Made by a program: the position numbers and the translations under genes. From Nitrosomonas sp. (lineage in GTDB: Bacteria; Pseudomonadota; Gammaproteobacteria; Burkholderiales; Nitrosomonadaceae), in contig NZ_JALHQJ010000003.1 in assembly GCF_022842015.1 (NCBI RefSeq), forward strand, positions 4,557 to 68,556: DNA of 64,000 bases. Direction: 5' to 3'. The notes under the pieces are model-generated. The model was not told the DNA's origin. It ran no database searches and worked only from the letters and a program-made list of their open reading frames with translations. Numbering within the stretch: position 1 is the first letter of the stretch; each line of letters opens with the position of its first letter. This document shows, in pieces, positions 20,131 through 44,312 of this stretch.

Positions 20131-20134
20131 ATGT

Positions 20135-22406: not shown

Positions 22407-22413
22407 AAAAGAA

Positions 22414-23337: not shown

Positions 23338-23356
23338 AATGATCTCCTTGTCACGT

Positions 23357-23384: not shown

Positions 23385-23408
23385 GATGACAAGGAAAGTC
23401 ATTAGCTA

Positions 23409-24307: not shown

Positions 24308-24406
24308 TGGATATTGCGCTTCTGGGGTTATTAAGCAGAAGCAATATAATTGTCGCGCTATATCGATTTACGCAGTAGAGGTTAAAATTTTCTGTGGTGG
24401 ATAATC

Positions 24407-24543
24407 GGGTGGACTTGGGGACGTGGGGACGAAGAAAAGGGATACGGTATAGGCCAATATATTGAATTATAATGATATTATAAATAACGGATATCAGTAG
24501 TCTGATACCCGTTATTTACGTCCCCAAGTCCCCAAGTCCACCC
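24407..24543. other. Nested inverted-repeat element, candidate replication origin
   Basis: 25-bp arms 24407-24431 / 24519-24543 (1 mismatch), each with two GGGGAC units 8 bp apart; inner 17-bp hairpin 24481-24518; AT-rich spacer. Confidence 0.6.
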
Positions 24544-24551
24544 CTGCATCA

Positions 24552-25886: not shown

Positions 25887-25972
25887 CCAGCTTTGCTCGA
25901 GGATGGATTGTTTGCGGTAGCGCTATACCTTCAGTACCTACCAAAGCAAATCAATTCTCGCAAACTAGCGGG

Positions 25973-26191
25973 ATGAGAAAAATCAAGGAACCACCAGAAA
26001 TTGCCGATATCGTGCGGTATTTTATGCCGGATGCCAATGATGAAGAATTAAAGGAAGCCACCATTAATTTCCGGGATTATTTGGCTGTGCTTTATCGAAT
26101 ATTCCTGCGCTTGGAAGCCGAGGGGCGTTTGGATGAGATTCGTGACTTTCCTGATAATAATGATAAAGTTAATGAATATAAACCTGATTAA
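25973..26191 (+). CDS. Small helical protein coupled to second recombinase (possible directionality/regulatory factor)
   Basis: 72 aa from ATG 25973; stop 2 bp before the recombinase ATG. Confidence 0.5.
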   Translation: MRKIKEPPEIADIVRYFMPDANDEELKEATINFRDYLAVLYRIFLRLEAEGRLDEIRDFPDNNDKVNEYKPD

Positions 26192-26193
26192 GT

Positions 26194-27747: not shown

Positions 27748-27830
27748 GTTATATTTATGATCTAACTCAATGTTCTCAAAAACATGTTTTGAATAAAAGG
27801 AGGGAGATATTGCAAAATTATGTTATCTAA
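27619..27830 (+). repeat. Copy A of a ~200-bp diverged direct repeat (recombinase-2 3' tail and downstream)
   Basis: Begins TATGGTGA; shares an identical 18-mer CGAGCCACATCTCGAACT (27634-27651) with 29098-29115; similarity continues past the stop; end coordinate approximate. Confidence 0.85.
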
Positions 27831-27987
27831 ACAGTAACTTGCAATTTACAAAACTTGTGGCATAGTGTAGTACTGTTCTTTAATAAAATTTAGTAGATGA
27901 GACGAACAAGCAGAGTGGCAAATATTGATATTCTGCTTGTTCGTCTCATTTTGAGCGGACATAACTTCAACTAATTGGAGGCACACG

Positions 27988-28812
27988 ATGTCAAACATCG
28001 CACACCTTGATACCGCTACTCTTGATACTGTCGCCAAGTTTTTCCGCATCATGCGGAAAGCTGGTGCTGATTTCACGGGTCCTATGCAAGATCTTAACAA
28101 AAGGAAAAACCTAGTAGCCTATTTGGCGCTTGAATGTCCTGAGATCACTGCCGAAGGCACAACAATCGTCACGATTATACCCAAAGGAGCCGAACTAGCA
28201 CGACGGATCTTAGGTGACGATTTCATCGACATCACCGAAGTTTCCTCGGCGTACAACTTTTCGTATTCTGATGAACAGCTAGTGAACTTTTCAAACACCT
28301 TGCCTGACTTCGATACTCTAATATGGCTACGTACTAATGGATACATGCTAGTCGCTGGGCCAAATGTAGATATCAATATGGTTGATATCTACAAAATCAA
28401 CCCCTCGCTGTATTACAGCAAGTTTCCCACTTTCGATTACGGGGAGGTTTGGCAAGAAAATGACAAGGAAAAGTTCCCGCGGTTGGACATGGTCAAGGCA
28501 GGGAAATGGCTTATGCTTCGCAAAGGTGATGTTCCGAATTCTCGGGCTAGTCCATGGTCTAATCAGAGTAAACTAGTCACCAGCCCCGAATACATTCCCA
28601 ATATCGCCAAAGTCATATACGGTGTGACTGTGTATCATAAAATTCGTAGTCATTACCTTCTATCAAACTTTTATGTCCGCACATCTTCATCTAATATGTA
28701 TGGCAATTCTGTAGGTGTCGGTTTTTTTGGTAGACATGGTATATGTATAGATGACAAATCTTTGGAAGATCGAGGCTTTGGCAACTGTGGCGTATCGTCG
28801 ATTCGAGACTGA
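27988..28812 (+). CDS. Hypothetical protein with DGR-variable-region-like C-terminus
   Basis: 274-aa ORF between repeat copies; C-terminus YVRTSS..GNSVGVGFF..GICI..DRGFGNCGVSSIR. Confidence 0.5.
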   Translation: MSNIAHLDTATLDTVAKFFRIMRKAGADFTGPMQDLNKRKNLVAYLALECPEITAEGTTIVTIIPKGAELARRILGDDFIDITEVSSAYNFSYSDEQLVNFSNTLPDFDTLIWLRTNGYMLVAGPNVDINMVDIYKINPSLYYSKFPTFDYGEVWQENDKEKFPRLDMVKAGKWLMLRKGDVPNSRASPWSNQSKLVTSPEYIPNIAKVIYGVTVYHKIRSHYLLSNFYVRTSSSNMYGNSVGVGFFGRHGICIDDKSLEDRGFGNCGVSSIRD

Positions 28813-28881
28813 ACTTTAAGATTATCAAGATTCTTAGATAGTTAAATAGACTAATTTGATCTTCATAAACAAAAAAAACAC

Positions 28882-28916
28882 AGACCCCCAAGTTGAAAAA
28901 CTTGAGGGTCTTTCTT
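28882..28916 (+). terminator. Intrinsic terminator after the 274-aa gene
   Basis: AGACCC-C-CAAGTT-GAAA-AACTTG-A-GGGTCT then TTCTT. Confidence 0.6.
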
Positions 28917-29016
28917 GATTAAGAATACCTAGTAAAGGGCGTTTAATCAGTTCGATTCCCACCAAGGTCTAATCAAAAGATATTCAATTTGGCAAATTTT
29001 CTTCCCAGAGCGTAAA

Positions 29017-29053
29017 ACACAAAATCGCTCTTAAAATAAGAGCGATTTTGTGT
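29017..29053. repeat. Perfect 17-bp inverted repeat
   Basis: ACACAAAATCGCTCTTA-AAA-TAAGAGCGATTTTGTGT. Confidence 0.85.
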
Positions 29054-29082
29054 CAAGGTAGGGAAACTTACCAAATGAAAGA

Positions 29083-29290
29083 TATGGTGAGCCATGTCGA
29101 GCCACATCTCGAACTAAAAACACTAAACCAGGTAAAACATCTAAGAATTTGTTTAGATTGATACATGACAAGAAACCGCCTAGTGATACTTCTAGCAAGC
29201 AGGTCGCTTAGTCTCCTTTATAAATCTTTGTTTATGTTCTCAAGAGTGAAACTTGAACAAAAGGAGAGAAATGTTACCAACAATATTGTT
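29083..29290 (+). pseudogene. Copy B: orphan 3' tail of a paralogous serine recombinase
   Basis: Translates YGEPCRATSRTKNTKPGKTSKNLFRLIHDKKPPSDTSSKQVA* versus YGEPHRATSRTFDVKASKTSKNLFKLIHDKEPPGDELGKLAA* in 26194-27747; end approximate. Confidence 0.85.
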
Positions 29291-29481
29291 TTTGTAGCAG
29301 AAGGTTTATCATTACTAAATGACAACAATTATTATATTGATGGATGCCCAGCTTTTGTGGGAGAAATAATACTACAAAATCAACTAATTGATGTAATATG
29401 GCACAATACAATTGCTCTATGAGTCTTCTATTATTGATTAGGAGCTCTGTGGTTGCTTTATTAATTTTTTAAATTTCACCT

Positions 29482-29940
29482 ATGTTTGAATTAGATCACA
29501 AGCATTTCATGCAGCTTGCGTTTGAACAAGCCAAAAAATCGTACGATGAAGGAGGATTACCAATTGGCGCAGTAATGATAGAAGATAATCTTGTCATTGG
29601 CTCGGGGCATAATCGGCGGGTACAAAATGGAGACCCAACTGCTCATGGTGAGATGGATTGTTTTCGACAAGTTGGTAGACGTAAAAACTACCAAGATGTC
29701 ACTCTCTACACCACATTAAGTCCATGTATGATGTGTGCTGGCACAGTGGTGCAATTCGGAATTCCACGGGTTATCATCGGTGAGAATAAGTCATTTGCCG
29801 GTAATATTGATTTTCTCAAAGAACATGGCGTCGAAGTCATTCTTCTGAACGATCCGCAATGTGAGTCCTTGATGCAAAAGTTTATTATTGAAAAACCAGA
29901 ATTGTGGAATGAGGATATTGCTGGGAGAGAACGTGTTTAA
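29482..29940 (+). CDS. Zn-dependent nucleoside/cytosine deaminase
   Basis: GGLPIGAV, AHGEMDC (HxE), LSPCMMC (PCxxC), ELWNEDI. Confidence 0.9.
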   Translation: MFELDHKHFMQLAFEQAKKSYDEGGLPIGAVMIEDNLVIGSGHNRRVQNGDPTAHGEMDCFRQVGRRKNYQDVTLYTTLSPCMMCAGTVVQFGIPRVIIGENKSFAGNIDFLKEHGVEVILLNDPQCESLMQKFIIEKPELWNEDIAGRERV

Positions 29941-30433
29941 TCATAAGCTGTTTCGTTTTAATATCCAAGATCAACTTCCCGAGACAAAAGAAGAGTTAGA
30001 TGAATATCTCAAAAACCTCAAAAACCTATTAAGCGATCAACAGCAAGAACCGATTTTTGCACACTTATATGAAAATCTATCAATTTTAGATGCAAAAGCT
30101 GCGTCATTGTTGCAGTTCAACTCAATCTTACTTGCAGTATTGGCCATATTTCTAACAGCCGACGCCATCTCAAGTACTGCTTTTTTTATTACCATAGCCG
30201 GTATATTCCTTATACTAATTTCATCATATTTGTTACTGGATGTTGTTTGGGTACATTGGTCAGCAGCGGATCATATGCACATCAGAGAAGATCATGAGCT
30301 TAAATTGCTTGAAGTGCGTAGAAGTCGCACGAGACTTTATCGTATTGCTTGGAATTTCTCTAGGGGAAGCTTATTGATGGTCGCAGCAGTTGTTATTTTT
30401 GAGCTTTTTCTAAAGATTACAGAGAAAGTTTAG
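29933..30433 (+). CDS. Small multi-pass membrane protein, possibly Pycsar-effector-like
   Basis: GTG overlaps the deaminase stop; ILDAKAASLLQFNSILLAV followed by about 3 hydrophobic helices. Confidence 0.55.
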   Translation: MFNHKLFRFNIQDQLPETKEELDEYLKNLKNLLSDQQQEPIFAHLYENLSILDAKAASLLQFNSILLAVLAIFLTADAISSTAFFITIAGIFLILISSYLLLDVVWVHWSAADHMHIREDHELKLLEVRRSRTRLYRIAWNFSRGSLLMVAAVVIFELFLKITEKV

Positions 30434-30589
30434 GAAAATTACCATCCAATGAATCGTCATACTTCAATAAAACTTCAAAGAATTCATTGAATTAAATCTC
30501 TGGGCACTACTAATATTTTCCATAACATAAGGCTAGAAGAGTTGCTTGTAGGTAGATCAAGTTCAAGTTTTACTTCACAATTAGCCTTT

Positions 30590-33169
30590 CTATAAGGTAG
30601 AGAACTTCCTAATTTTTTTTCTAATTTCTTCAAATCGCATTATTTCATCATTAAGATTCTGTGGTTCAGGATTCTTGTAAGCATATTTATCGCTATGGGT
30701 ATGTCCTTCCATATAGCGACAACATTGTGCAAAACTATCTTGTAGTTCTTGAATTAAAATCTGGTCAAAGTTCACTTCTGATAAGGAATCAATACTAACT
30801 CTATCCTCAAATGGTCTTACTGTATTATTAAAGAGATCATAGATAACTAGTACCTCATAAGAAGTTCTTAATGCAGAAAAGCCTTGGGCTAAATACCTGT
30901 ATCTTTCTTCCGGAGGACAATCGTCTTTATTGCTATTCCTGAAGTAATTCTTTGCAGGCTCAGCATTTCTGTATTTCTTCTGATATATTGGAGCGTTTCC
31001 GAACCAAATAAAACCAGGCTTATTGTTTCTACTTTCAATCCAATGACATAATACTTCGTCTTCTTTTGATTTAGATAAAAGATTAGATACGAAAACCAAA
31101 TCGTGTGAGAAGACAATTACTTGCTTGGCTGATGATTCGGCAATTAATCTCCTTGCTATTTCAGCTTTTCTTGCATCATCTAAAGAAGTAACAGGGTCGT
31201 CAAATATGATTCCTCTGTTCACTTCTGATAATTGCATTTCTGCTATAAAGTCAGCAATAGCAATAACTTTCTGCTCTCCTTCACTCAATACAGCATTCGG
31301 GTTATTACCTCGTAATTTTAGCTGTCTATACGATCTACCTGCTGTGCCTGTATGATTTATCTCGATACCAAAATTTCCATTTAGTTTTTGACACTCTTCA
31401 TTAAAAGTTTCGACATATTTCTGATTGAAATACTTATCTGATAGAGCTTTCTCAGTATCGGTTATTTTTCTTTTGGCAAAATTTGCACTACCTGCTTTTT
31501 TTATCCATATTTGATTATCAACGAAAGCCTCAAATTTTGAAAAATGAGTATTAAATTTCTCTTTGTGTTCTAAGAATGTTTTTTCCTTCAGCAATTTTTC
31601 CAATTTATTGCTTTGTTCATCATCTTTGAACAATTTAATTGCATCGCCAAGCGCTGTTTCAATCGTTGTGTGCTCTTCAACGCTAATTTTTACTTCAATT
31701 CGATTATTTGCTGTTTTATTTTGAATATCGGAAATGATGCTTTCAGATAGCGTTTTTTGTTCAGTGAGCCTTTGTTTTAATGAGTTCAAATGCTGGGGAT
31801 ATTTTTCAGTAAGCCAAGCTGAGAGTGTATTTTCTATAGGAAACAACTCAAAAACTAATTTCTCAAAAGCTTGCCTGATTTTATCAAGCTCTTCCTGTGC
31901 TTTTTTTGCATTCTCTTCCGCGACACTTTTTATAAAAGTCCAATAACTTGCAATCAATTTCTCAGCATCTTCTGAAAGTGGCTGATGGCAAAATAAACAG
32001 TTATCTCCGTTTTCAGGATAAATAGCTTTTTCAAATTTTTGATTTATTGCGAATGCTTCGGCGCTTACAATAAAATCTTTCCACTCTTCAGTGCCAATAC
32101 CTTCAATTTTATCCGTTTTAAAATTTTCAATTCCCTCGGCTTTAGCAACATCTTCTTTTTTCTTGCAATCGTTTATTACTTTTTTTACCTTTTCAAGTGT
32201 TTCGGTTGAGAAATATCGGTTAAGTGTTTCAAGTGCCTTTTTATTTTCTCCTAATAATTTTTTAATGTTCTCAAGATCTTTTATTTCCTTATCCTTACTT
32301 CTTGAAGCCAGAAGCAGTTCGTCATATTGCTTCTGAATTTCCGCTTTTTTGGTTTTATCTTCTTCTGAAAAAGGAGTGTATTTTTTCAAATCTTCAATTT
32401 TGGTTGAGGCAGAAAGTTTCTCAATTGCTGTTTTAATTTCAGATTCGCCATCAAATAAAAATAAAAGACTATCTAATGTATGCCCAATCCTCTTATCACT
32501 AATATTAGCATTTAGTTTTTGTTCAATTTTTGTAATAGCATCGGTGTATTCAGCAAAAAAACTTAATCCTGCTGGCCGGAACTCAAATTCATTTTTGTTC
32601 TCAAGTTGCTTTAATAATCCCTTTCCGTCAAAAACAGAGAACTGTTCAAACTCTACTGAATTCTCATTTGCAGGATATTCCAATGGAATGTCTGAATTCT
32701 GAGAAATGAAAGTAAATTTTGCTTTAATGGATTTGTGACCGCTATTGATATGAACATTGGGCAAAATTTCTTCTGGAGCTTTTGAGTAAAATACTTTTTT
32801 GAGCAATCTAACATAACCTGATTTTCCGGAACCGTTTGCACCGTAGATGATAGTCAGATTAGGGCTGAATTCAATTGTTTGGTTTTCAGTTAAAGCGTTT
32901 ACACCTTCAACACTTTCAAGTCTTGAAAGTAATAAATCAAGTTTATGATTACCTGAATTTCCGGCATTGTAATTGATTGTAATTACAGGCTTCTCGGTCT
33001 CATTCTTTAGCTTTAATTCTTCAAGGAGACAGGAATACGAAGTATCGATGTCATTTAGAGAAATGGCATTCCCTGACAAAATCTTCTGAGCGATGTATTT
33101 TGCCCAATACGGGAGATTATTGGCAAAATTATTTATTTCAGATTCAAGTGTTAAGTGCTTAGAAGTCAT
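30590..33169 (-). CDS. RloC-like ABC-ATPase with zinc hook and HEPN-like C-terminus
   Basis: GANGSGKS, CLFC hook in a long coiled coil, LSEGEQK, FDDPVTSLD, RYMEGH (Rx4H). Confidence 0.7.
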   Translation of the reverse strand: MTSKHLTLESEINNFANNLPYWAKYIAQKILSGNAISLNDIDTSYSCLLEELKLKNETEKPVITINYNAGNSGNHKLDLLLSRLESVEGVNALTENQTIEFSPNLTIIYGANGSGKSGYVRLLKKVFYSKAPEEILPNVHINSGHKSIKAKFTFISQNSDIPLEYPANENSVEFEQFSVFDGKGLLKQLENKNEFEFRPAGLSFFAEYTDAITKIEQKLNANISDKRIGHTLDSLLFLFDGESEIKTAIEKLSASTKIEDLKKYTPFSEEDKTKKAEIQKQYDELLLASRSKDKEIKDLENIKKLLGENKKALETLNRYFSTETLEKVKKVINDCKKKEDVAKAEGIENFKTDKIEGIGTEEWKDFIVSAEAFAINQKFEKAIYPENGDNCLFCHQPLSEDAEKLIASYWTFIKSVAEENAKKAQEELDKIRQAFEKLVFELFPIENTLSAWLTEKYPQHLNSLKQRLTEQKTLSESIISDIQNKTANNRIEVKISVEEHTTIETALGDAIKLFKDDEQSNKLEKLLKEKTFLEHKEKFNTHFSKFEAFVDNQIWIKKAGSANFAKRKITDTEKALSDKYFNQKYVETFNEECQKLNGNFGIEINHTGTAGRSYRQLKLRGNNPNAVLSEGEQKVIAIADFIAEMQLSEVNRGIIFDDPVTSLDDARKAEIARRLIAESSAKQVIVFSHDLVFVSNLLSKSKEDEVLCHWIESRNNKPGFIWFGNAPIYQKKYRNAEPAKNYFRNSNKDDCPPEERYRYLAQGFSALRTSYEVLVIYDLFNNTVRPFEDRVSIDSLSEVNFDQILIQELQDSFAQCCRYMEGHTHSDKYAYKNPEPQNLNDEIMRFEEIRKKIRKFSTL

Positions 33170-33304
33170 TTATGTATTCTACATAAAACACAGATTTCTA
33201 CAAAGATAAGCAAATGATGTTAAGTTCTCACACCATGCCTATCCTCCAATTATGGTGAATTATTTATATCGGGTTGTTCTTTTGATTTCAAAAAGGAGTC
33301 CGAT

Positions 33305-33871
33305 ATGTCAATGCAAATGCGCTCAAACGCTGAGCTTCTCGCCATGCTGGTGGGGAAAAGAAAAGCCGATAAGCTATTTCGCAACACACTGGTTTCACTA
33401 TTTTTTGCCAGGGAAGGAAGCAATAAATACTCGAAGGAACTGGCCGCTGCCAAGGAGCTAGTTAAACGCTCTCTAAATGAAGAGATACAGCAATTGGATG
33501 CTCTCAGTTCACCGGCAAAAGTGGCTGATTACCTGAAGTTAACGCTCATGGGATATGAACATGAAGTTTTTATCACCTTATTCCTTGATGCACAAAACCG
33601 CCTCATTGCTACCGAAGAATTGTTTCGTGGCACTTTGACCAATACAGCCGTCTATCCACGGGAAATCGTCAAGCGGGCGCTTTTGCTCAACGCGGGCAAT
33701 GTTATCTTTGCGCACAATCATCCTTCCGGATTGGCGACACCAAGTCATGCCGACAAAGTGCTGACAGAGACTTTAAAACAAGCATTAGCGCTCATAGACG
33801 TGAAAGTGCTCGATCATTTAGTGATCGGAGACGCCGCTGCGGTTAGTTTCGCCGAAAGTGGATGGTTATAA
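33305..33871 (+). CDS. radC: RadC family JAB-domain protein
   Basis: EHEVF, VYPREIVK, FAHNHPSG..PSHAD, VLDHLVIG. Confidence 0.9.
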   Translation: MSMQMRSNAELLAMLVGKRKADKLFRNTLVSLFFAREGSNKYSKELAAAKELVKRSLNEEIQQLDALSSPAKVADYLKLTLMGYEHEVFITLFLDAQNRLIATEELFRGTLTNTAVYPREIVKRALLLNAGNVIFAHNHPSGLATPSHADKVLTETLKQALALIDVKVLDHLVIGDAAAVSFAESGWL

Positions 33872-33874
33872 ATT

Positions 33875-33908
33875 AAACCCTGCCATAAACAGCAGGGTTT
33901 TTATTTTT
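33875..33908 (+). terminator. Intrinsic terminator after radC
   Basis: AAACCCTGC-8nt-GCAGGGTTT followed by a T-rich run. Confidence 0.7.
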
Positions 33909-33992
33909 TGTGAAAAACAATGGCTATAGAAATTACCAGAGCAGTAATTCACCACATCGTGCCATTTTTTTAGCGCAATCTATTCTAGCTAG

Positions 33993-35183
33993 GTGCATTA
34001 CCAACCCATTTCATTTTTTGGAAGAACCAACGCTCGAAATTCTCACCGCCACTTTGGTATCAAAAATAATGACCGTTTTTCCCATATCTATGTAATTGGC
34101 CGTACCGGGGCTGGAAAAACTACCTTATTGGAAACTCTGGCTACACAGGATATACAAAATGGCAAGGGCTTATGCGTCATTGATCCACATGGCGATCTGG
34201 CTGAAAGATTAGTATTAAGTGTTCCAGAACAGAGGACTAATGACCTTTGTTATGTGAACGTACCCGATATACAACAACCTTATGGCTATAACCCACTAAG
34301 AAAGGTACACCCTTCCCGTATACCCTTGGCCGTGTCGGGACTGATGGAAGCTTTCAAAAAACTTTGGGACGAGGCCTGGGGCGTTCGCATGGAGCATATA
34401 CTTAGAAATACGCTCTATGCCTTGATTGAAGCCGGTGACGCCAAGCTACCCGATATTCTTGGTATGATTGCTGATAAAAACTATCGCGCAACCATCATTC
34501 CGAAAGTTAAAAATGAGCAAGTGCGTAGTTTCTGGCTGGAAGAATTCACTGCCTATAATCCCCGCTATCGGCAGGAAATGATCGCTCCTATTCAAAATAA
34601 AGTCGGTGCATTTCTGGCCGATCCCAAGCTAAAACGCATCTTTACCGCAGCCCCCGTTAACCTCCAATTTCGATCAATTATGGATGAAGGGAAGATTCTG
34701 ATTGTGAATCTAGCCAAAGGTCGTCTTGGTGAGGATAGTGCCTCACTGTTTGGTGCGCTACTCGTAACCACTCTTGGTTTAGCGGCTATGAGTCGTGGTG
34801 ATATGCCGGAGTCAGAGCGCCGCGATTTTTTCATATACATCGATGAATTCCAGAGTTTCACTACGCTTTCCATCGCTAATATGGTTTCGGAGCTGAGAAA
34901 GTATCGTATTGGCCTTGTTTTGGCGCACCAACACTTCTATCAATTGGAACCCGATGTTAGGCATGCGGTATTAGCCAATGCCGGTACACTGATAGCGTTT
35001 CGGGTGGGGCCAGAAGATGCACCGCTGATTGCTCGGGAATTTGCACCAGTTTTCAACGTCACCGATCTTATCAGTCTACCAAACCACCATATCTACCTAA
35101 AACTCATGATCGACGGCGCTCCTAGCCAGCCATTTAGTGCCACCACTTTACATCCCCATGATCTTAATCATTTAAGTTATTAA
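33993..35183 (+). CDS. VirD4/TrwB/HerA-like P-loop ATPase
   Basis: HIYVIGRTGAGKT, VIDPHGDL, YIDEFQSF, ELRKYRIGLVLAHQ. Confidence 0.8.
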   Translation: MHYQPISFFGRTNARNSHRHFGIKNNDRFSHIYVIGRTGAGKTTLLETLATQDIQNGKGLCVIDPHGDLAERLVLSVPEQRTNDLCYVNVPDIQQPYGYNPLRKVHPSRIPLAVSGLMEAFKKLWDEAWGVRMEHILRNTLYALIEAGDAKLPDILGMIADKNYRATIIPKVKNEQVRSFWLEEFTAYNPRYRQEMIAPIQNKVGAFLADPKLKRIFTAAPVNLQFRSIMDEGKILIVNLAKGRLGEDSASLFGALLVTTLGLAAMSRGDMPESERRDFFIYIDEFQSFTTLSIANMVSELRKYRIGLVLAHQHFYQLEPDVRHAVLANAGTLIAFRVGPEDAPLIAREFAPVFNVTDLISLPNHHIYLKLMIDGAPSQPFSATTLHPHDLNHLSY

Positions 35184-35257
35184 CCCTTCTATCCGCTAAT
35201 ACAAAACGTAGATACTTTAGTTACTTATCTTATTCATGAGAAAAGAGGAGAAATCAT

Positions 35258-35638
35258 ATGAAGTTATTGCTACGTCGTAATCAAAAAACCGGCATGCTCG
35301 GAAAAATCATCTTTATCATCGCCGTCCGCGCGGAACTATCCGATGAAGAAAAAGCCGATATCAAAAAATACAAACTTGGCGATACTATGCTCTATGAACG
35401 CTCCAAAATCGCTGATCCCGGTAGCGGACTTCTTGGCATGGCTTCACGCTTAGCTTTCAGAATGATTAATCTGTCAATCTCAGTTAATGATTTAGAGAAG
35501 GGAAAAGAGGTTGAGTGCAAAGATGTGGTGGAAATGCTGGCCGTTGAAGAACAAATAAAAGAAGCCGCCCATACCTTTCGGACAGTCCTTGGAGCCGCTA
35601 GTACTTTTGGTGGTGAGGAAATTATCGAGATCAATTAA
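35258..35638 (+). CDS. Hypothetical protein
   Basis: 126 aa, SD-like GAGGAG upstream, abuts the 926-aa gene. Confidence 0.65.
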   Translation: MKLLLRRNQKTGMLGKIIFIIAVRAELSDEEKADIKKYKLGDTMLYERSKIADPGSGLLGMASRLAFRMINLSISVNDLEKGKEVECKDVVEMLAVEEQIKEAAHTFRTVLGAASTFGGEEIIEIN

Positions 35639-38419
35639 GTGTCTCAAAACTGGCTTTCCTGGCTCAAACCTTCGCCTAAACAATTAGAACAGGCGGAGAT
35701 GCTGACTATGTTGCAGCAGTTACAGCAGCATAGTCAGTGGGCATCGCCTCTCAATACCGAAGACAAAGTTAACAACTTTATAATTGATGTCATTGCTGAT
35801 GCTTGCAGTGAGCATGGCACTCTACCCGGCATACCTTTAGGCGAAGCGCTATTCTACGCCATCAAAACTCTTTTAAAAGATGATTCAATTATCGGAGAGT
35901 TACCAACTGAATCAGAAATTTGCCATCTAAGTATTGAAGAAGGTGTGCGTCTCCGAGCCGCTTTTAGACGCTATGAGCGGTTTCTAGCAACCCCAGATCG
36001 ATTATTAGCTATCTGGCAGGCAAAGCTCATATGGCTTTTTAGAGGTCTGCTTGGATATTTTCCCGAGTCCGCGTTTATTGATGTTAATGAAAATGGACAA
36101 GGTGCTGATGATTCCGTTGTTTTCCCCAAAGCTCAGGCTTTTGATCTTTGCGACAACCTTCCGGAAGTCATTCAGCGCATCATCGCGACTTTATTTGATG
36201 AGGATGTTGTTGAGGCACAGCTTTTTGCGCCAGAGCGAGACATATTTAACCGGAATTTGTTAAAAGCATCAGGCTATTCACCTGATGCTACCTTTAACCA
36301 TGATCCCAAAATAATATTACCCACAGAAAGCAAACTTAGAGAACCTGCGGCGTTGGTCGATGCGTATTTAGGCGGTACGCCATTTCAGGAACTGTTATAC
36401 AGCCCATTACCGTTTGCGATTCCGTTTCCGGCCCGATTTGAACACACGCACATTGTTGGCGGGACTGGGCACGGCAAAACCCAGCTTATGCAATTCTTGA
36501 TTCATCACGATATTGTGCGCTCACAAGATGATGGACGCTCAATTGTGGTGATTGATAGCCAAGGTGATTTGATCAATACCATTTCAAAGCTTGGTTATTT
36601 TAGCAATCCGGCACTAGCCGAACGTTTCGTACTCGTTGATCCAAACGATATTGAGCATCCGGTATGTCTAAACATGTTTGATTTCAATCGGGACAGACTA
36701 AGCGGTTATGCACCGGTTGACCGGGAAAAGATTTTAAATGCCACCATTGAGCTTTATGAGTATTTCTTTGGTGCTCTTCTTGGCGCTGAACTTACCCAAC
36801 GCCAAGGACTAATATTCCGCTACTTGGCCCGGTTATTGATTGAGATTCCCGATGCCAATATTCATACACTCAGGGAATTGATGGAAGATGGGGCAAAATT
36901 CCGGCCCTATATGGAGAAACTAACCGGTACGGCCAGAAGTTTCTTTGTCACGCAGTTTTTTGATAAAAAATTTGGTGAGACCAAAAAGCAAATTTTGACC
37001 CGTCTTTGGGGTGTGCTATCGAATTCATCCTTGGAGCGGATGTTTTCCCATACTCGCAATCGGATAGACATCTTTGAGCTCCTAAATCAAGGCAAGATTA
37101 TTCTTATTAATACCGCCAAGGACTTGTTAGGGCAAGACGGTGCAGCCATTTTCGGGAGATTCTTTATTGCCCTGATCGCTCAAGCCTCGATTCAACGGGC
37201 CGCCATGCCACCGCATACCCGTCGATCAGCTTTTGTTTATATTGACGAAGCGCAAGACTATTTTGATGACAATATTTCGCATCTGCTTAATCAAGCTAGA
37301 AAGTATCGAGTAGGACTGATCTTTGCTCATCAAAACATGGATCAATTAACTGCCAATCTTCGTTCCAGTGTACTGGCTTCCACCACCATTAAATTTGCCG
37401 GTGGTTTAAGTGCCAAGGATGCCGGAGTTCTTGATTCTGAATTCCGTACCGATGCCGATTTCTTGCTAGGTATGAAGAAAGGGAAAAATCATACCGAGTT
37501 TGCTTGTTATGTGAAGAACTACACTAATAAAGCGCTGACAGTATCGATTCCACTCGGGTTTGTGGAAGATAAACCCAAGATCACAGCCTTTCAGTATGAA
37601 GAGCTTTTGGATCGGAATCGTGAGTTATACAGTGAACCGCCACTATTGCCTGAAGAAATAGCGTTTCCTGAGCAGAGCAAACCAGAGTATAAAGGGCTAC
37701 AACCAGCCAAACCCAAAGAAACAACACCAGAAAAGCCATCACAGCCAGTGGCTACACCAGCTGAGCAAGAAAAATCCGCTTCACATGTACAACAGTCAAT
37801 TATCACGCCTATTGAATCGGAAGTACCTACTACACCAGAAGCCACCGCTAAAACAACCGCTGCGCCTAAAAAAGCGAAACCCATACCACCAGAGGATATT
37901 CCTCAAGCTGGCCGTGGTGGGCGACAACATAAGTATCTGCAACATTTAATCAAGCAATTGGCCGAAGAACGCGGATTCCGTGCCACTATTGAAGAAACCA
38001 TATTGGATGGCGCTGGACGGGTCGATGTATCGCTTATTCGTGAGAAAATACGAGTAGCTTGCCAAGTTTCGGTCACCACTACCAAAGATTGGGAACTTGG
38101 TGGTATCGAGAAGTGTTTTGCGGCTGGCTATACCGAGGTAGTGCTGGTATCGGGGACGGAACGGCATATCAAGAAATTATCCAAGTTTGTGGAAGAAAAC
38201 CTTGATCCCAAGGATCAGGGACGTGTCCGGTATATAATTCCTGATGGCGTTATTGAGTTTCTTGATAGTCTTGGGAAATTTACTCCGACTGAACAAGTGG
38301 TGCGTGGATACAAAGTACGCACGGTGCAACAGGCTACTGATTCAGAAGATGCGGCTTCGAGGCGGAAAGCAATTTCGGAGGTTATTGCTAGGTCGTTGCA
38401 GAAGGAGAGGGAGAAATAA
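35639..38419 (+). CDS. Large VirD4/TraD-like ATPase with Pro-rich linker and nuclease-like C-terminal domain
   Basis: HTHIVGGTGHGKT, VIDSQGDL, YIDEAQDY, QARKYRVGL; C-terminal GRVDVSL..VACQVSV. Confidence 0.75.
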   Translation: MSQNWLSWLKPSPKQLEQAEMLTMLQQLQQHSQWASPLNTEDKVNNFIIDVIADACSEHGTLPGIPLGEALFYAIKTLLKDDSIIGELPTESEICHLSIEEGVRLRAAFRRYERFLATPDRLLAIWQAKLIWLFRGLLGYFPESAFIDVNENGQGADDSVVFPKAQAFDLCDNLPEVIQRIIATLFDEDVVEAQLFAPERDIFNRNLLKASGYSPDATFNHDPKIILPTESKLREPAALVDAYLGGTPFQELLYSPLPFAIPFPARFEHTHIVGGTGHGKTQLMQFLIHHDIVRSQDDGRSIVVIDSQGDLINTISKLGYFSNPALAERFVLVDPNDIEHPVCLNMFDFNRDRLSGYAPVDREKILNATIELYEYFFGALLGAELTQRQGLIFRYLARLLIEIPDANIHTLRELMEDGAKFRPYMEKLTGTARSFFVTQFFDKKFGETKKQILTRLWGVLSNSSLERMFSHTRNRIDIFELLNQGKIILINTAKDLLGQDGAAIFGRFFIALIAQASIQRAAMPPHTRRSAFVYIDEAQDYFDDNISHLLNQARKYRVGLIFAHQNMDQLTANLRSSVLASTTIKFAGGLSAKDAGVLDSEFRTDADFLLGMKKGKNHTEFACYVKNYTNKALTVSIPLGFVEDKPKITAFQYEELLDRNRELYSEPPLLPEEIAFPEQSKPEYKGLQPAKPKETTPEKPSQPVATPAEQEKSASHVQQSIITPIESEVPTTPEATAKTTAAPKKAKPIPPEDIPQAGRGGRQHKYLQHLIKQLAEERGFRATIEETILDGAGRVDVSLIREKIRVACQVSVTTTKDWELGGIEKCFAAGYTEVVLVSGTERHIKKLSKFVEENLDPKDQGRVRYIIPDGVIEFLDSLGKFTPTEQVVRGYKVRTVQQATDSEDAASRRKAISEVIARSLQKEREK

Positions 38420-38628
38420 AACTTGGGAAAACAATTAAAATAAACTAAGACATTGAATTCTTCTTCAGTAACATGATAACCAGATACCCCCATGAAGATT
38501 AATTTATCGTAAGCAAATTCTTTCGAAAGTTGCTTAAGTAACTCTTAAATAATGCATTTAAATAGGACAGTCACAGCTAAGTGAAACCATTTTACCGTTA
38601 TACTAAAAATATTTAAAATCAATTAACA

Positions 38629-38645
38629 TTGATAAGTGTTATCAA
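38629..38645. promoter_or_regulatory. 7-3-7 palindrome upstream of the PqqD operon, candidate operator
   Basis: TTGATAA-GTG-TTATCAA about 70 bp before ATG 38714. Confidence 0.35.
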
Positions 38646-38713
38646 GTAATTGAAATTTTCTGTTTTTCTTTTTATTATGACAATGTAATTATTTAACTGA
38701 AAAAGGGCACTAT

Positions 38714-39148
38714 ATGAAAAATCTTTTTGATAGAAATCTTTCGTTAATAGAATCCGAAGTAGGTAATAATCTACTGTTGTATGATACTGTTAAAGAAGTA
38801 TTCTTTGTACTTAATCCACCAACAAAATTTATATGGCTGTTGTATTCCGAGGAGGATTCAATTACGCCAATCATCCAAATGATCAAAAAGTATTATAAGC
38901 ACCCTGCAAGAGAAAAAGAAATTATGGATGATGTTATCCAGATGGTAGATGAGCTAAAAAAAAATAAAATCCTTATCCCTGCAGATAATACTAAATCATC
39001 TCATTCCCAGTCCTTAAACTTAAGTACTTCTATTGAAGAACAATACAGCAAACCAACCCTAAGAAGTCTTACAAAAGAATGGATGCTGGAGTACCATCCA
39101 GACTCATATTACAGGGGTTCCCATTTTAGTGACCTGTGGGATTCTTGA
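38714..39148 (+). CDS. PqqD/RRE-family protein with C-terminal precursor-like tail
   Basis: Residues 1-89 PqqD-like (LLLYD..FFVLNPPTKFIWLL..DDVIQMVDELKKNKIL); Ser/Thr linker; YSKPTL at 111-116; aromatic-rich tail. Confidence 0.75.
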   Translation: MKNLFDRNLSLIESEVGNNLLLYDTVKEVFFVLNPPTKFIWLLYSEEDSITPIIQMIKKYYKHPAREKEIMDDVIQMVDELKKNKILIPADNTKSSHSQSLNLSTSIEEQYSKPTLRSLTKEWMLEYHPDSYYRGSHFSDLWDS

Positions 39149-40115
39149 ATTGAAAAGCTTTTCTTTTCTCTCTACTCCTGTTAAAAAATTAATTGAACAA
39201 GACTATCCTGAATTAAATTATGGAGAATACTTTTCTTCAATTGAATTTGAAGATCGGTCATTGCTGGTAGAAACGAATATTCCAAATTTAATTCCATTAC
39301 TGAACAAAAGATTCTATTGTGTCTCAAAAACAAAATTATCTTTTTGCCAAGCTTTTGTTAAGATTATTAAATCAAAAGAAAACCTTATTATTGAAACATC
39401 TTACAGAAAAACAATTTGTTTATGGAATGAATTATCTATATTTTTTGTAAAAAGAAATTCAACAAATAAAATTATTCAGGCTGGTAGTTTCAATCAGGCA
39501 ATTGGATCAAGCGACCCCCTTGATGACTCACTTACAGCCGAAATTAACACCCTAATATATTTTTTCATTGAAAGAGAAATTCTTTTAGAAATAAATTACT
39601 TATATAGAGATTATCTTTTTTTGCACGCATCATGTGTATATAACGATATGAGTAAGTTAGTCTTTCTGGGGCCGTCCTATTCGGGAAAAACGACACTTGC
39701 ATCAGCATTTGAATCTCTCGGCTGGCAATTTTTATCTGATGACATCATTGCAATCCACAGAATAACAAAAGAAATTAAATCATTCCCCAAAAAGAAACAC
39801 TTGCGCGAAGGAACAAGGAATCTTATCAATAATATTCATTTATCCAAAATTGCGAAGAAAGAATATATGAATAAACCAAATACTCGAGGATATTTTTTAT
39901 GCGGTTATAACCAAGGCCATGACCCGGAAGTAATTCCGGTCACTAACTTGGCTGATACACTTAATCAGATTTCACAGCATTTAATCATTCAAACTAAAAT
40001 GAATGGTGAAGAGAAATTTAATCAACTTTTTCCAATATTTGATAAATGGGAATTCTTCGAAATTCGAAGCATTTATGGTGACTTAACAAGCACTATTGAA
40101 GGCATTATCCAATGA
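39129..40115 (+). CDS. HPr-kinase-related P-loop kinase
   Basis: FLHAS, GPSYSGKTT, FLSDD motifs. Confidence 0.75.
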   Translation: MTCGILELKSFSFLSTPVKKLIEQDYPELNYGEYFSSIEFEDRSLLVETNIPNLIPLLNKRFYCVSKTKLSFCQAFVKIIKSKENLIIETSYRKTICLWNELSIFFVKRNSTNKIIQAGSFNQAIGSSDPLDDSLTAEINTLIYFFIEREILLEINYLYRDYLFLHASCVYNDMSKLVFLGPSYSGKTTLASAFESLGWQFLSDDIIAIHRITKEIKSFPKKKHLREGTRNLINNIHLSKIAKKEYMNKPNTRGYFLCGYNQGHDPEVIPVTNLADTLNQISQHLIIQTKMNGEEKFNQLFPIFDKWEFFEIRSIYGDLTSTIEGIIQ

Positions 40116-41077
40116 ATCCTACCACTCAAGAAAAAATACTTTTAACACCACAGATTAGAAAAGTGGTTGTTAAACTTACCAACAAGTGCAACCTGACTTG
40201 CAAACATTGCTATGTTTCAAGTCATCCACATGGAGAACATGGTCTTCAAGTAAATCAAGTTAAAAAAATTATCGATGAAACCTATAGATTGTATGGTTCT
40301 TTACTTTTTACACTCAGCGGGGGTGAAGCTCTCGTTAGAAAAGCAGATGTACTAAATCTGCTCAGATATTCAAAAAATTTTCATAAAACAGCTTTATATT
40401 CTAATGGAACTTTATTTACTAAAACTGTGAGCGAGCAGATTGCAGCGATAAGCCCAATAGTTCAAATAAGTATTGACGGTGCCTCATCATTTTCTCACGA
40501 TACCATGAGAGGGTCCGGAGCTTTTGATCGTACCCTTCATGGAATTGAAAATCTACTTACTGCCGGCTTGTCTTCCGAAAACATTCAGATTTTCTCGTCT
40601 ATTACAAATGAAACGGTTGAAGAAATGAATGAAATTCTTATGCTTGCAGATCGCTTGAGCATCAAGAGAGTGAGATTCGAACCAATTGCAAAAACAGGGA
40701 GAGCGAAAGAAACATGGCCAGATTCAGCTTCCCAAGTTTATGAAAACACTACCAAAAAATATCTAACGTATATAAAAAACCAAAAGGAATGGGTTAATGA
40801 TTGGGTTATGGAAGAAAGAAGAGACCTAAATTTTAATTTGCTTAAAATCTATAGCGATGGAACGGTGATGCCATATGCCTATTACGATGAAGAAGATAAG
40901 AAACTGGGCTCATTAGGAAATATTTTTGTCAATGATATTACAGAAATAGTCAATCCAGAAAATTTTACAAAAAAAATCATTGGGAAGTTTATCAGCGTAT
41001 CAAGTGGCCCCCAGCGAAGCTTGAAAGCTATTCAATTTACAAAACGAGGTTGTAATTTGTTATGGGATGTAATATGA
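40112..41077 (+). CDS. Radical SAM enzyme
   Basis: CNLTCKHC, SGGE, ISIDG; ATGA coupling to the kinase. Confidence 0.9.
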   Translation: MNPTTQEKILLTPQIRKVVVKLTNKCNLTCKHCYVSSHPHGEHGLQVNQVKKIIDETYRLYGSLLFTLSGGEALVRKADVLNLLRYSKNFHKTALYSNGTLFTKTVSEQIAAISPIVQISIDGASSFSHDTMRGSGAFDRTLHGIENLLTAGLSSENIQIFSSITNETVEEMNEILMLADRLSIKRVRFEPIAKTGRAKETWPDSASQVYENTTKKYLTYIKNQKEWVNDWVMEERRDLNFNLLKIYSDGTVMPYAYYDEEDKKLGSLGNIFVNDITEIVNPENFTKKIIGKFISVSSGPQRSLKAIQFTKRGCNLLWDVI

Positions 41078-42453
41078 GCTCTTTCCCAACATCTAAATCC
41101 AACAAAGAAATAATTGCTACGCTGCATCATCATAGATCAACTCTCTTCTCGTTTGAAAAAGAAGATCGTGTGATTCTCGGGGCAGTGTTCTCTAACTATA
41201 TGACAGCGCTCAATCGAGCAGCTCAAGTGATACGAAATGTAACCAATATTAAAACTAATCACACCATTCTCCTTAAAAGTCCGATAGATTCTTACCTCAT
41301 TAAACCTGTATCAGATACTTGTAATTTAAGATGTACTTATTGTTATGAAGGAGAAAAAGTAATTCGCAAGAACGGAAAAATGCCGTTAAGTCTTTTGGAA
41401 CCATTAACGAAGCAAATCATTGACATATCTCATGATAAAATCACAATTTCATGGCATGGTGGAGAACCCATGCTTAGAGGAATTGACTTCTTTAAGAAAG
41501 CTCTTTTCTATCAAAATAAATATAACAAAAAAGACCTCACAATCATCAATTCAATTCAGAGCAATGGCACATTGTTAACGAATGAATGGATCGAATTTAT
41601 ATTACTTCATAACATTAAAATCGGCATTAGTGTTGATGGACCTCTCTTATTACACGACAAATCTAGGATAGATTCAAATAATAAGGGAACCTATAATAAA
41701 GTAAAAGAAAGTATAAAAGCACTACAGCAAAGAGGAATAAATCCGGGAATAATATCAGTCATTCAGCCTCATCACATTGGAAATGCAAAATTGTATTTCG
41801 AAGGAATTGTAAAATTGGGTATCAGGAACTTAGATGTGCATCCATCTTTCGGATTTCACGGCCCAAGTGACCCTACAACCATTACAGCAAAACAATTTTC
41901 TAATTTCATGATTGAATTATTCGAATTGTGGTTAGCTTTTGGCGATCATACTATCAGGATAAGAGCTTTTGATGAATTTTTCAAAGGTTATTTAGGTGAA
42001 AAACCCGTTGTTTGTCACAATAATGGTGGTTGTTCAAAAATCTTAGCAATAAATGCAAATGGTGAAGTTATTCCATGCACCAGGCCATTTCATGACAAAG
42101 AATATATTTTTGGAAATCTTTATTCAACTTCATTACATGAAATAATACAAAGTAGCAAATGGAAAAATTTTGTTCAAAACGAAATAAGTGGTCAAAATCT
42201 CTCATCTGACTGCAAATGGAAAAGTATATGTTATGGAGGATGCCCTCAACATAGATATTCAGACAATCAGCAGGATATTAATTCATCAAACTATTTTTGT
42301 AGCTGCAGGAATAAAGATGAGAGCGGTTTCGGTCAATTATGGAGCCATATGCTGTGTAGAACGGATAGCATTATTTCGAATCTTAATGAAAAACACCTCG
42401 ATTGTTTGGTACAGACCTACGATAATAGATACAATCAAAAAGTAACCCCATAA
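41074..42453 (+). CDS. Radical SAM/SPASM maturase (anSME-like)
   Basis: CNLRCTYC, WHGGEP, SPASM-type C-terminus C..GC..GEVIPC..CKWKSICYGGCP..FC.C; ATGA coupling. Confidence 0.9.
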   Translation: MSSFPTSKSNKEIIATLHHHRSTLFSFEKEDRVILGAVFSNYMTALNRAAQVIRNVTNIKTNHTILLKSPIDSYLIKPVSDTCNLRCTYCYEGEKVIRKNGKMPLSLLEPLTKQIIDISHDKITISWHGGEPMLRGIDFFKKALFYQNKYNKKDLTIINSIQSNGTLLTNEWIEFILLHNIKIGISVDGPLLLHDKSRIDSNNKGTYNKVKESIKALQQRGINPGIISVIQPHHIGNAKLYFEGIVKLGIRNLDVHPSFGFHGPSDPTTITAKQFSNFMIELFELWLAFGDHTIRIRAFDEFFKGYLGEKPVVCHNNGGCSKILAINANGEVIPCTRPFHDKEYIFGNLYSTSLHEIIQSSKWKNFVQNEISGQNLSSDCKWKSICYGGCPQHRYSDNQQDINSSNYFCSCRNKDESGFGQLWSHMLCRTDSIISNLNEKHLDCLVQTYDNRYNQKVTP

Positions 42454-42455
42454 AA

Positions 42456-43289
42456 GTGACATTTAATCTTGGTGGAAAATTCGAAATTAACCGAATTGGT
42501 TATGGTGCCATGCAGCTCACTGGTAAGGGTGCTTTTGGTGAAATTCAGGATCAGGAAAATGCAATAAACCTTTTACAAACCGCAATCAGCAGTGGAGTAA
42601 ACTTTATTGATACTGCAGAAGCTTATGGACCTCATACCAATGAAATATTAATCAAAAAAGCACTTTATCCTTATAAGGAAGATTTGGTCATTGCGACGAA
42701 AGGTGGTCTCTTCAGACCTGGTCCATTTCAATGGAAATACAATGGCAATCCGGACTTTATCCGGAAAAATATAGAATCCAGTCTAGAAAGGCTTCAGATT
42801 GAAAGCATTATTTTATGGCAACTGCATCGAATTGACCCTGAAGTTCCAATTAAAAAAACGCTGGAACCTGTACTTGATGCTGTGAATACGGGAAAGATAA
42901 AGTTTGTTGGCTTGTCAGAAGTTTCCATAGATCAATTGAAAGCGGTTGAAGAAATTTTGCCTATTGTTTCAGTTCAAAATCTCTATAATCTCTCGATAAG
43001 GAAGTGGGAAGATATGGTTGATTATACAGCCAGCAGAAATATTGCATTTATTCCGTGGCACCCATTACATTCAGGAAAACTTTCCTTATCAGAAAAGATT
43101 AGAGATATTGCAATCGCTCACGATGCGACAGTGTACCAAATTGCATTAGCTTGGCTGTTGAAACGGTCCTACAATATTATTCTAATTCCTGGCACGAAAT
43201 CACTCACACATTTAATTGAGAATTTAAAATCTGCAGACATTAGATTATCAGATTCTGAATTTACTGAAATCTCAAAAGCAATGTATTAA
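42456..43289 (+). CDS. Aldo/keto reductase
   Basis: IGYGAM, FIDTAEAYG, IATKGG, LHRID, VGLSE, SVQNLYN, LIPGT. Confidence 0.9.
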   Translation: MTFNLGGKFEINRIGYGAMQLTGKGAFGEIQDQENAINLLQTAISSGVNFIDTAEAYGPHTNEILIKKALYPYKEDLVIATKGGLFRPGPFQWKYNGNPDFIRKNIESSLERLQIESIILWQLHRIDPEVPIKKTLEPVLDAVNTGKIKFVGLSEVSIDQLKAVEEILPIVSVQNLYNLSIRKWEDMVDYTASRNIAFIPWHPLHSGKLSLSEKIRDIAIAHDATVYQIALAWLLKRSYNIILIPGTKSLTHLIENLKSADIRLSDSEFTEISKAMY

Positions 43290-43357
43290 AAAATGTGTTC
43301 TCATATAAAAATATCACGAAATACGGGTTGATAAATATACAATAAAAAAAGACCAAT

Positions 43358-43825
43358 TTATTTACCATGTCGCTCATTCCACTGCTTTCTCATAGTTTTA
43401 TCAATAATATCCTCATTCATACCAAGAAATGAAGCAACGAGTCGCCGGTGATCATTCTTCATGATCGTTCCACCGCCTTCCCAATCCTTTACAGTACAAG
43501 GATCAACGCCTAAATTCCTAGCAACTACCCGCTGGCTCCACCCTAATTCTCGGCGCTTGGCAAACAACAATTCCGCAATTGATTTGGGATTCAAGTTAAC
43601 AGGATCATAACCAAGAAATTTGATCAGGATCGGCGTTTGGCAAAATTTTGGTTCTGAATGCCCATTTTCCCAGTTACCAACGGTGAAGTGAGTAACATTA
43701 AATAGCTCTGCTACCTCTGTTTGTTTCATATTAAGAAAAAGCCTTCGTTTAAGAATGTGTTCACCAATTGCTTTTGGTTCAAATTCATAAGGCTTAGGAA
43801 TTAATGACTTAAGTGAGGTGCGCAC
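43358..43825 (-). CDS. Tandem XRE-type HTH protein; predicted C-terminal module of the excised-state integrase
   Basis: Two HTH units (LKRRLFLNMKQTEVA..VGNWENG; KRRELGWSQRVVA..VKDWEGG); GTG start with no SD-like sequence; frame is open back to the TG core and closed by TAG at 43862-43864. Confidence 0.85.
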   Translation of the reverse strand: MRTSLKSLIPKPYEFEPKAIGEHILKRRLFLNMKQTEVAELFNVTHFTVGNWENGHSEPKFCQTPILIKFLGYDPVNLNPKSIAELLFAKRRELGWSQRVVARNLGVDPCTVKDWEGGGTIMKNDHRRLVASFLGMNEDIIDKTMRKQWNERHGK

Positions 43826-43828
43826 ATA

Positions 43829-43852
43829 TGGTAAAAAGGCAACGCGTCTATG
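43829..43852. repeat. Right attachment junction: arm TGGTAAAAAGGCAAC (43829-43843) + 7-bp spacer + TG core
   Basis: Exact inverted copy of 10647-10661 at the same 7-bp distance from TG. Confidence 0.92.
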
Positions 43853-44312
43853 CCCTTGCGGCTACTTGGGCCATTCCAACGGAAAATGCCATTGCACCCC
43901 AGACCAGATTTCCCGCTATCGCGGCAGAATCTCCGGCCCGTTATTGGATCGCATTGATATCCAAATTGAAGTTCCGGCGGTGCCGCAAGAAGAATTGATG
44001 CAACGCCGAATTATCGGCGAAAAAAGCAACATAATCAGAGACCGCGTGACGGAATCGCATCAACGACAACTCAGCCGACAGGAAAAAACCAACAACCGCT
44101 TGAGTGTTAAGGAAATCGACAAATTCTGTGCACTGGATACTGCTAGCGAAAACCTACTGAAACAGGCAATCAGTCGTTTGAACCTGTCTGCCCGGGCGTA
44201 TCACCGCATACTGAAAGTCGCGCGAACAATTGCGGATTTGTCGGGTATCGAGAGAATCAATAATCAGCACATTGCGGAAGCGATTCAGTATCGTAGGTTA
44301 GATAAACATTAG
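43851..44312 (+). pseudogene. comM: ComM/YifB 3' part
   Basis: CPCGYLGH..YRGRISGPLLDRIDI..LSARAYHRILKVARTIADL..HIAEAIQYR; 348+153 = 501 aa when rejoined. Confidence 0.95.

Follow-up and report, generated by a model that had tools for sequence, protein, structure and literature searches.

The window analysed here is a 64,000-nucleotide stretch of a Nitrosomonas genome (NCBI RefSeq assembly GCF_022842015.1, contig NZ_JALHQJ010000003.1) in which the gene comM is interrupted by an island of lower GC content that separates its two halves by 33.2 kb. At its left end the island carries a large serine recombinase (LSR), hereafter the integrase, and at its right end an open reading frame (ORF) for a tandem helix-turn-helix (HTH) protein; these two ORFs, and the attachment site formed when the island ends meet, are the subject of this report. 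Joining the comM flanks in silico at their shared TG yields an intact ComM of 500 amino acids (...AAMNPCPCGYLGH...). This exact restoration without target duplication, the TG core and the dyad symmetry of the att site are the features expected of insertion by an LSR. The core lies at the Cys codon of NPCPCG in comM, a position that is identical in all relatives (9 genomes). When the island ends are joined instead, the rebuilt attP contains a perfect 14-bp inverted repeat, GGTAAAAAGGCAAC and GTTGCCTTTTTACC, placed symmetrically about the TG (Table 1), and the segment GCGTTGCCTTTTTGC of the HTH-side arm is conserved in 13 attR ends; judged by this symmetry, the rebuilt attP has the look of a serine-integrase site.

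The integrase of the window matches the Resolvase family (PF00239, E 1.3e-33) followed by the Recombinase family (PF07508, E 2.2e-17). A preliminary description of this DNA, made from its letters alone, had claimed that the integrase ORF reads through the left crossover, its last seven residues (GFIAAIS) being comM antisense, and that joining the ends at TG leads without a stop into the HTH ORF at the far end. Both claims are borne out. The HTH ORF (43358-43825, minus strand) encodes 155 amino acids from a GTG start at 43825 and has two HTH_3/HTH_31 matches (PF01381 and PF13560), the HTH_3 signature being present twice. Once the island ends are joined in silico, a single minus-strand ORF of 676 amino acids without a stop results, made up of 513 integrase codons, 8 joint codons and the 155 codons of the HTH ORF, with TEPHRRVAFLPYVR as the junction peptide. 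Also as first described, the HTH frame is shut in the integrated state by a TAG (43862-43864), and the GTG lacks an upstream Shine-Dalgarno (SD)-like motif; the TAG lies three codons before the core. The C-terminus of the HTH protein is identical in the integrated and joined states. We consider it highly probable that the integrase and the tandem-HTH ORF are the two halves of one gene, with attP situated in its linker.

Relatives were sought in one genome per species, and 35 relatives of the integrase were found. Nine of these adjoin the 5' half of comM as in the window, and in eight of the nine genomes an HTH protein lies beside the comM 3' half; the ninth, a metagenome-assembled genome (MAG), is without it. 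For each relative, attP was rebuilt by locating the core in each end and then joining integrase end, CA and HTH end. The preliminary description had proposed examining homologous elements for a random frame, or stops, across attP, and the opposite was found: all eight of the other comM-inserted genomes, with integrases 56-81% identical to that of the window, rebuild an open integrase-HTH frame of 602-689 amino acids (Table 1). In two of them (L013 and L014) the core falls in a different codon phase, the length of the integrase part modulo 3 being 2 and not 0, and the frame is still open; the HTH ends of these two genomes show the corresponding shift, the frame having moved on both sides of an unaltered att geometry. 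In every rebuilt joint, 28 codons separate the core from the first HTH helix (LGEH). Over the 70 codons preceding that helix in 16 joints, the fusion frame contains 0 stops, compared with 39 and 77 in the other two frames. A joint that closes after 16 codons (L010+L047) was considered as a disproof of conservation and set aside: compared with L055 it has lost one nucleotide from the run of T in the att arm, and it belongs to a tandem array as the inner junction, apparently decayed, the outer one (L055) being open. An open joint was found in all the relatives examined, so its frame is judged to be beyond chance and the integrase-HTH arrangement to be under selection; few independent evolutionary events underlie these cases, namely the standard phase, the shifted one and at least one further att sequence.

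The fused gene also exists as a single uninterrupted ORF. Seven contigs (L005, L009, L083, L085, L087, L088 and L090) contain it, at lengths of 638-685 amino acids. The closest, L005, encodes 683 amino acids, with its integrase part 81% and its HTH part 67% identical to the window, and L009 encodes 685, the corresponding figures being 71% and 47%; the joint peptide is common to the two. An exhaustive phmmer search with the L005 protein against 1.84 billion cluster representatives returned at least 10 clusters (50% identity level) of full-length fused proteins, 633-674 amino acids long, 34-51% identical to L005 and aligning end to end (representatives in Table 1). Five of the fused proteins were traced to independent metagenome contigs (L083, L085, L087, L088 and L090), where the neighbouring genes are element- or phage-like (TrwB-like ATPases, a second LSR, TIR and radical-SAM/SPASM proteins, the last resembling those at the right end of the window). 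Other searches were less revealing. A word-indexed protein search with the junction and HTH part of L005 alone gave no matches, although the exhaustive search did find fused proteins; tblastn of the linker and HTH part against cultured phages and plasmids gave only generic XRE regulators at less than 36% identity and no characterised relative; and NCBIfam and PHROGs supplied only generic names for the integrase and HTH parts.

In the diverged fused genes the linker DNA contains palindromes around a central CA, with arms of 16 bp in L083. The linker of L088, which is 46% identical, has at residues 489-502 a perfect 38-bp palindrome, ATTTGGGGTACAGAACCC-CA-GGGTTCTGTACCCCAAAT, with 18-bp arms and a sequence of its own, not that of the comM site; this palindrome is a putative attP for a target other than comM. 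Since this palindrome is unrelated to the comM site, the att position inside the gene would predate specificity for comM. In a separate case, one further relative of the integrase (P0001, 648 amino acids; L091 5001-6947) is fused in frame, in the sense direction, to the C-terminal part of ComM, with the joint ...NMATR|PCRCGHLGD... and Pfam matches to Mg_chelatase and Mg_chelatase_C. Its core reads TG in the integrase sense, not CA; this inverted central dinucleotide places the element in comM in the opposite orientation.

In an AlphaFold model of the L005 protein, built from a 12-sequence alignment and with a mean pLDDT of 79.5, residues 1-486 form a confidently predicted LSR core and residues 488-527 a linker with pLDDT below 50; the linker gives way to a short strand, the two helical domains of the HTH module and a final helix. 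Long helices at residues 353-456, set between strands, are as in the zinc-ribbon with coiled coil of the full LSR fold. With Foldseek, the core (some 510 residues) matches the full-length SPbeta (9dxh), Bxb1 (9iu2) and phiC31 (9rah) integrases at E values of 1e-20 to 1e-15. Because these core residues align with full-length integrases, the 520-residue integrated form is predicted to have every canonical part of an LSR, and the split to fall after a complete core. The HTH module modelled alone with AF2 (pLDDT 88.8) forms two helix bundles. Its profile matches include P22 C2, the 434 repressor, HipB, ImmR of the integrative and conjugative element (ICE) ICEBs1, and SinR, with a resemblance to C-proteins as well, and in Foldseek it scores TM 0.6-0.8 to single Cro/CI-type domains. 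The model of the module had no match among the recombination directionality factor (RDF) chains of integrase complexes in the PDB library, RDFs sharing no common fold. The module is thus modelled as a single-chain pair of Cro/CI-type DNA-binding domains.

The disordered linker, of about 40 residues, encodes both the att site and a hairpin (Table 1). The hairpin lies about 25 nt before the att arm and recurs at the same place in L005, L006, L007, L009, L010, L011 and L022, with stems that vary among relatives (AAGGAGGAATAAT, GGAGGA, GGGGGAAC and GAAGGGGGAGG) and, in most of them, T-rich sequence following on the comM-sense strand. Its probable role is that of an insulating terminator that stops comM read-through from running antisense into int and leaves int-sense transcription unaffected. 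A second GC-rich hairpin was seen upstream in several relatives. The low-complexity Gly/Pro composition of the linker peptide would be explained by other jobs of its DNA, as att site and as terminator hairpin; we infer that the peptide itself is not selected and that only the open frame is maintained. The idea that the hairpin hides an SD sequence (AAGGAGG) for internal initiation was rejected, there being no start codon at a workable distance, and relatives having GGGGGA stems.

Across the attR ends no start codon for a stand-alone HTH protein is conserved, and none has a convincing SD sequence. Most relatives have a TTG at codon +6, inside the conserved att arm GCCTTTTTGCC; in the window, codon +6 is TTA and a GTG occupies +9. 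Every attR end nevertheless offers at least one in-frame TTG or GTG 3-11 codons from the core. No promoter-like site for the HTH ORF was found in the antisense of the comM 3' region, and scans for promoters and terminators around both ends gave sites no more numerous than in shuffled sequence. Upstream of int, the palindrome TTAGCTAA occurs twice without being enriched (7 found, 4.5 expected), and the short inverted repeats there are unremarkable.

Two long MAG contigs, of 594 and 185 kb, hold the element with attP intact and the fused gene stably encoded there. In the first (G003, the source of L005) the gene order, second recombinase, helicase, integrase-attP-HTH and ATPases, is a circular permutation of that in the window, and the element lies between two 210-bp direct repeats, 92% identical, that comprise the 3' end of the second recombinase; the arrangement in G007 is similar. 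Elsewhere in each MAG a comM homologue is present without interruption, and no NPCxCG site was found in the stretches around it. From these MAG contigs, on which the case rests, the element appears able to reside by a route other than comM, with its first integrase gene intact. The preliminary description had supposed that the fused form is made only when the element is circular: the gene is indeed continuous in the circle, and the restriction to that state appears too narrow in view of the intact copies inside the two contigs. As regards the second recombinase, its site seems to lie within its own 3' coding region (window 27385-27774), and the repeats in G003 suggest a second route of integration with replacement of its tail.

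Within the genus, comparison of the source genome with 24 others finds the HTH module in only four, and integrase together with HTH only in the genome of the window; the other HTH-bearing genomes have integrase-less remnants or fragments. In one of them (G001, C15 43547-50238; L001/L064/L069) comM is intact, and an ars operon with HTH and a comM-3' fragment lies 4.7 kb from it; over 461 bp, beginning exactly at the core, the two comM-3' copies share 93.5% identity. Two tandem HTH|comM-3' junctions each were seen in G006 (C111), G008 (C17 50878 and 74505) and G009 (C128). Such comM-3' arrays might have arisen through homologous insertion of circles carrying a comM flank. The cargo of the island (12792-43289) comprises a ChaN/Tiki-like protein, a YgjP metallopeptidase, ArdC-like and RadC-like proteins, an AAA_13 ATPase, a type I restriction-modification system (HsdR, HsdS, HsdM) interrupted by an AAA_15/AAA_21 ATPase gene, two TrwB/HerA-like ATPases, a PqqD-led radical-SAM cluster and the second LSR. 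No relaxase or mating-pair genes were recognised among this cargo.

Table 1. Features of the split integrase-HTH gene, its att sites and its relatives. Coordinates are those of the window unless a contig is given.
Feature	Coordinates	Strand	Details
comM 5' part	9594..10637	+	codons 1-348; ...AAMNP, then junction-made TGA
Integrase, integrated state	10613..12175	-	520 aa = 513 own codons + 7 comM-antisense codons (GFIAAIS)
Left crossover core TG (attL)	10638..10639
Island inside comM	10638..43850		33.2 kb
attP arm at integrase end, GTTGCCTTTTTACC	10647..10660		encodes GKKAT of integrase tail on the minus strand; conserved in relatives
Hairpin, 13-bp stem (AAGGAGGAATAAT / ATTATTCCTCCTT), then GTTTTGA	10668..10705	+	inside integrase-tail coding region
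Second large serine recombinase	26194..27747	+	517 aa
C-terminal part of split gene	43358..43850	-	8 joint codons + tandem Cro/CI-type HTH module
attP arm at HTH end, GGTAAAAAGGCAAC	43830..43843		encodes VAFLP on the minus strand
Right crossover core TG (attR)	43851..43852
comM 3' part	43851..44312	+	codons 349-500
Direct repeats flanking the element in G003	G003:C1 236477-236685 and 271858-272067
Rebuilt fused ORF, L006+L052			602 aa
Rebuilt fused ORF, L007+L043			689 aa
Rebuilt fused ORF, L008+L046 / L056			667 / 662 aa
Rebuilt fused ORF, L010+L055			662 aa
Rebuilt fused ORF, L011+L045 / L054			659 / 672 aa
Rebuilt fused ORF, L013+L058			652 aa
Rebuilt fused ORF, L014+L049			662 aa
Rebuilt fused ORF, L031+L048			666 aa
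Full-length fused cluster representatives			P0002-P0005, P0010, P0012, P0015, P0071, P0074, P0088

These observations can be assembled into the following scheme. As sequence and comparison show, in an element that is free, or resident elsewhere than in comM, the gene is continuous and its encoded product some 640-690 amino acids long. Recombination of the TG core with comM splits the gene, and excision or residence outside comM rejoins the halves. After insertion, the left end encodes the whole recombinase core followed by a few foreign residues (520 amino acids in the window), and the HTH module is stranded 33 kb away, devoid of a conserved start or SD sequence; little or no HTH protein would then be made. 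Since the circle in a new cell encodes no other form, full-length integrase-HTH would be the enzyme that performs attP x attB integration. The HTH pair may then be a sequence-specific DNA-binding regulator, tethered to the integrase for as long as the gene is continuous, with possible roles in autoregulation of int, in control of element genes, in an effect on directionality or in the release of a weakly expressed free repressor. Integration would in this way alter both the integrase isoform and the supply of HTH protein, and the element could read out its own state. We propose, tentatively and as somewhat less probable than its opposite, that the position of attP constitutes a self-contained state switch, the fused protein being integrative or self-regulating and the truncated integrase differing in directionality, stability or regulatory output, with no need of a classical pair of RDF and repressor.

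Several observations weigh against this scheme. On the model, the integrated form keeps all the canonical LSR domains and the HTH module may therefore be dispensable for catalysis; a search for an HTH operator upstream of int, in an alignment of 9 relatives, found no conserved block; the assembly of the source genome contains no contig with the attP junction; and several of the pairings of integrase and HTH ends join different contigs of one MAG, assumed to be one element. In addition, an intact HTH ORF persists beside comM-3' with a normal attR, and with no integrase anywhere, in G001 (= G026), G002 and G032, of the same genus as the window, and the two closest remnant copies (L001 and L002) differ by six synonymous and two non-synonymous changes, a dN/dS of about 0.09 on those 8 changes. 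This hints that the HTH module may be useful, or expressed, alone. The remnants, that ratio, the in-frame TTG or GTG near the core at every attR end and a fold like that of phage and ICE repressors are all points in favour of a different role for the split, in which integration releases a repressor: free tandem-HTH protein, translated from the weak TTG or GTG starts in the integrated state, would be the product of biological importance and would repress excision, replication or incoming relatives, and the fused form would be inactive as a repressor. Yet an upstream SD sequence and a promoter-like site are both absent, the candidate start shifts (GTG at +9 in the window, mostly TTG at +6 in the att arm elsewhere), and the open frame in two phases and with differing att sequences is left unexplained. 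We regard release of a repressor as possible though rather unlikely. It would be a variant of the scheme above and not exclusive of it, and would amount to a serine-integrase analogue of BPs-type immunity.

That the gene is a natural integrase-RDF fusion, whose HTH module serves as a directionality factor in cis and biases the fused protein towards excision, blocking re-integration and keeping the element episomal for replication or transfer, we think improbable: a circle arriving in a new host makes the fused form alone yet must integrate, the module matches Cro/CI domains and no chain of an RDF complex in the PDB library, and the integrated state, the one that calls for an RDF, leaves the module devoid of expression signals. 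The idea has in its favour the helicase-, ArdC- and TrwB-like genes, which suggest an episomal or transfer phase, the reported activity and directionality of engineered integrase-RDF fusions (PMC5737554), and the absence of a common fold among RDFs (PMC11795197). Coincidence would require independent integrase and HTH genes that happen to abut attP, the HTH protein being made from its own start and the open frame being an inherited one-in-three accident. Such an accident would accommodate the shortness of the joint (8 codons in the window), the coding nature of both flanks, by which indels would come in multiples of three, and the persistence of HTH remnants without an integrase; but 16 of 16 joints are open, down to some 31-34% protein identity, no stop was ever seen between the domains, the frame is held in two codon phases and across att sites of unrelated sequence, and gene callers report proteins of 633-674 amino acids in many independent metagenomes, so coincidence is most improbable. 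Least credible is an assembly artefact, the contiguous fused genes being chimeric joins of attL and attR reads. L005 and L009 do occur in MAGs labelled Saccharibacteria, with an element 71-81% identical to the Nitrosomonas-like one, which hints at binning or co-assembly problems; against this, there are seven loci from independent samples (Logan, JGI and ENA-derived), element genes lie on both flanks in circularly permuted order, and even a mis-joined circle would represent a real attP sequence.

LSR directionality is currently explained by coiled-coil interactions together with a separate RDF. A natural family that loses a DNA-binding domain upon integration would offer a new and testable coupling of enzyme form to element state. 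Catalogues of LSRs drawn from integrated elements would list such enzymes as truncated forms of 500-530 amino acids ending in a few foreign residues; the integrating form would be about 150 residues longer than catalogued, which is relevant for tests of these enzymes as genome-engineering tools. The linker would stack three constraints, att site, terminator hairpin and open reading frame, on one stretch of DNA, and the principle of a gene spanning attP would extend to bacterial serine recombinases.

Several known systems invite comparison. In BPs-type integration-dependent immunity, which is found in mycobacteriophage clusters G, I1, N and P, Broussard and colleagues reportedly described in 2013 an attP in a distinct repressor gene, at its 3' end and adjoining a tyrosine integrase, such that integration removes a degradation tag. 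The likeness is an att site in an HTH-regulator gene whose product depends on integration state; here, however, attP separates the integrase core, on its 5' side, from the HTH module, on its 3' side, and the module is fused to a serine integrase. SSV-type 'suicidal' integrases also have genes that span attP and are split by integration, and self-splitting integrases have been called exclusive to archaea in a review; those are archaeal tyrosine enzymes in which the enzyme proper is broken, whereas here the serine-recombinase core is left whole. In Mx8 IntP/IntX attP lies inside the integrase gene, and the prophage integrase gains a new 3' end that leaves its catalytic part in place and reportedly changes its properties (PMC6070905, PMC4383910). 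Both there and here attP falls within integrase coding sequence and integration alters the C-terminus, but the Mx8 enzyme is a tyrosine recombinase that exchanges a C-terminal stretch of its own, not a separable tandem-HTH module at the far end.

Among serine recombinases, comM homologues are the most enriched target, accounting for 12.4% of predicted site-specific LSRs (PMC10083194, Durrant et al.), and the split-gene layout is not mentioned in that report. A similar layout is that of sr1WO of Wolbachia phage WO, which likewise has an LSR at one end, insertion in Mg-chelatase (comM) and HTH_XRE genes at the opposite, 3', end (PMC9203015); the source reports no frame across attP, and tblastn against the phage collection detected no similarity between the WO HTH genes and the HTH module. 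Engineered serine integrase-RDF fusions likewise tether an accessory protein to the integrase C-terminus (PMC5737554). They are artificial and their partner is a known RDF; here a Cro/CI-type double HTH would be attached and detached by recombination itself. The preliminary description had held the architecture to be undescribed, which stands for the large serine recombinases, for which the literature searched gave no earlier description of an attP-spanning integrase gene, and does not stand for the principle. Integrase genes lying across attP are already known in tyrosine systems (Mx8 and SSV, with BPs as the counterpart for a repressor), and the gene described here appears to be a new, serine version of them.

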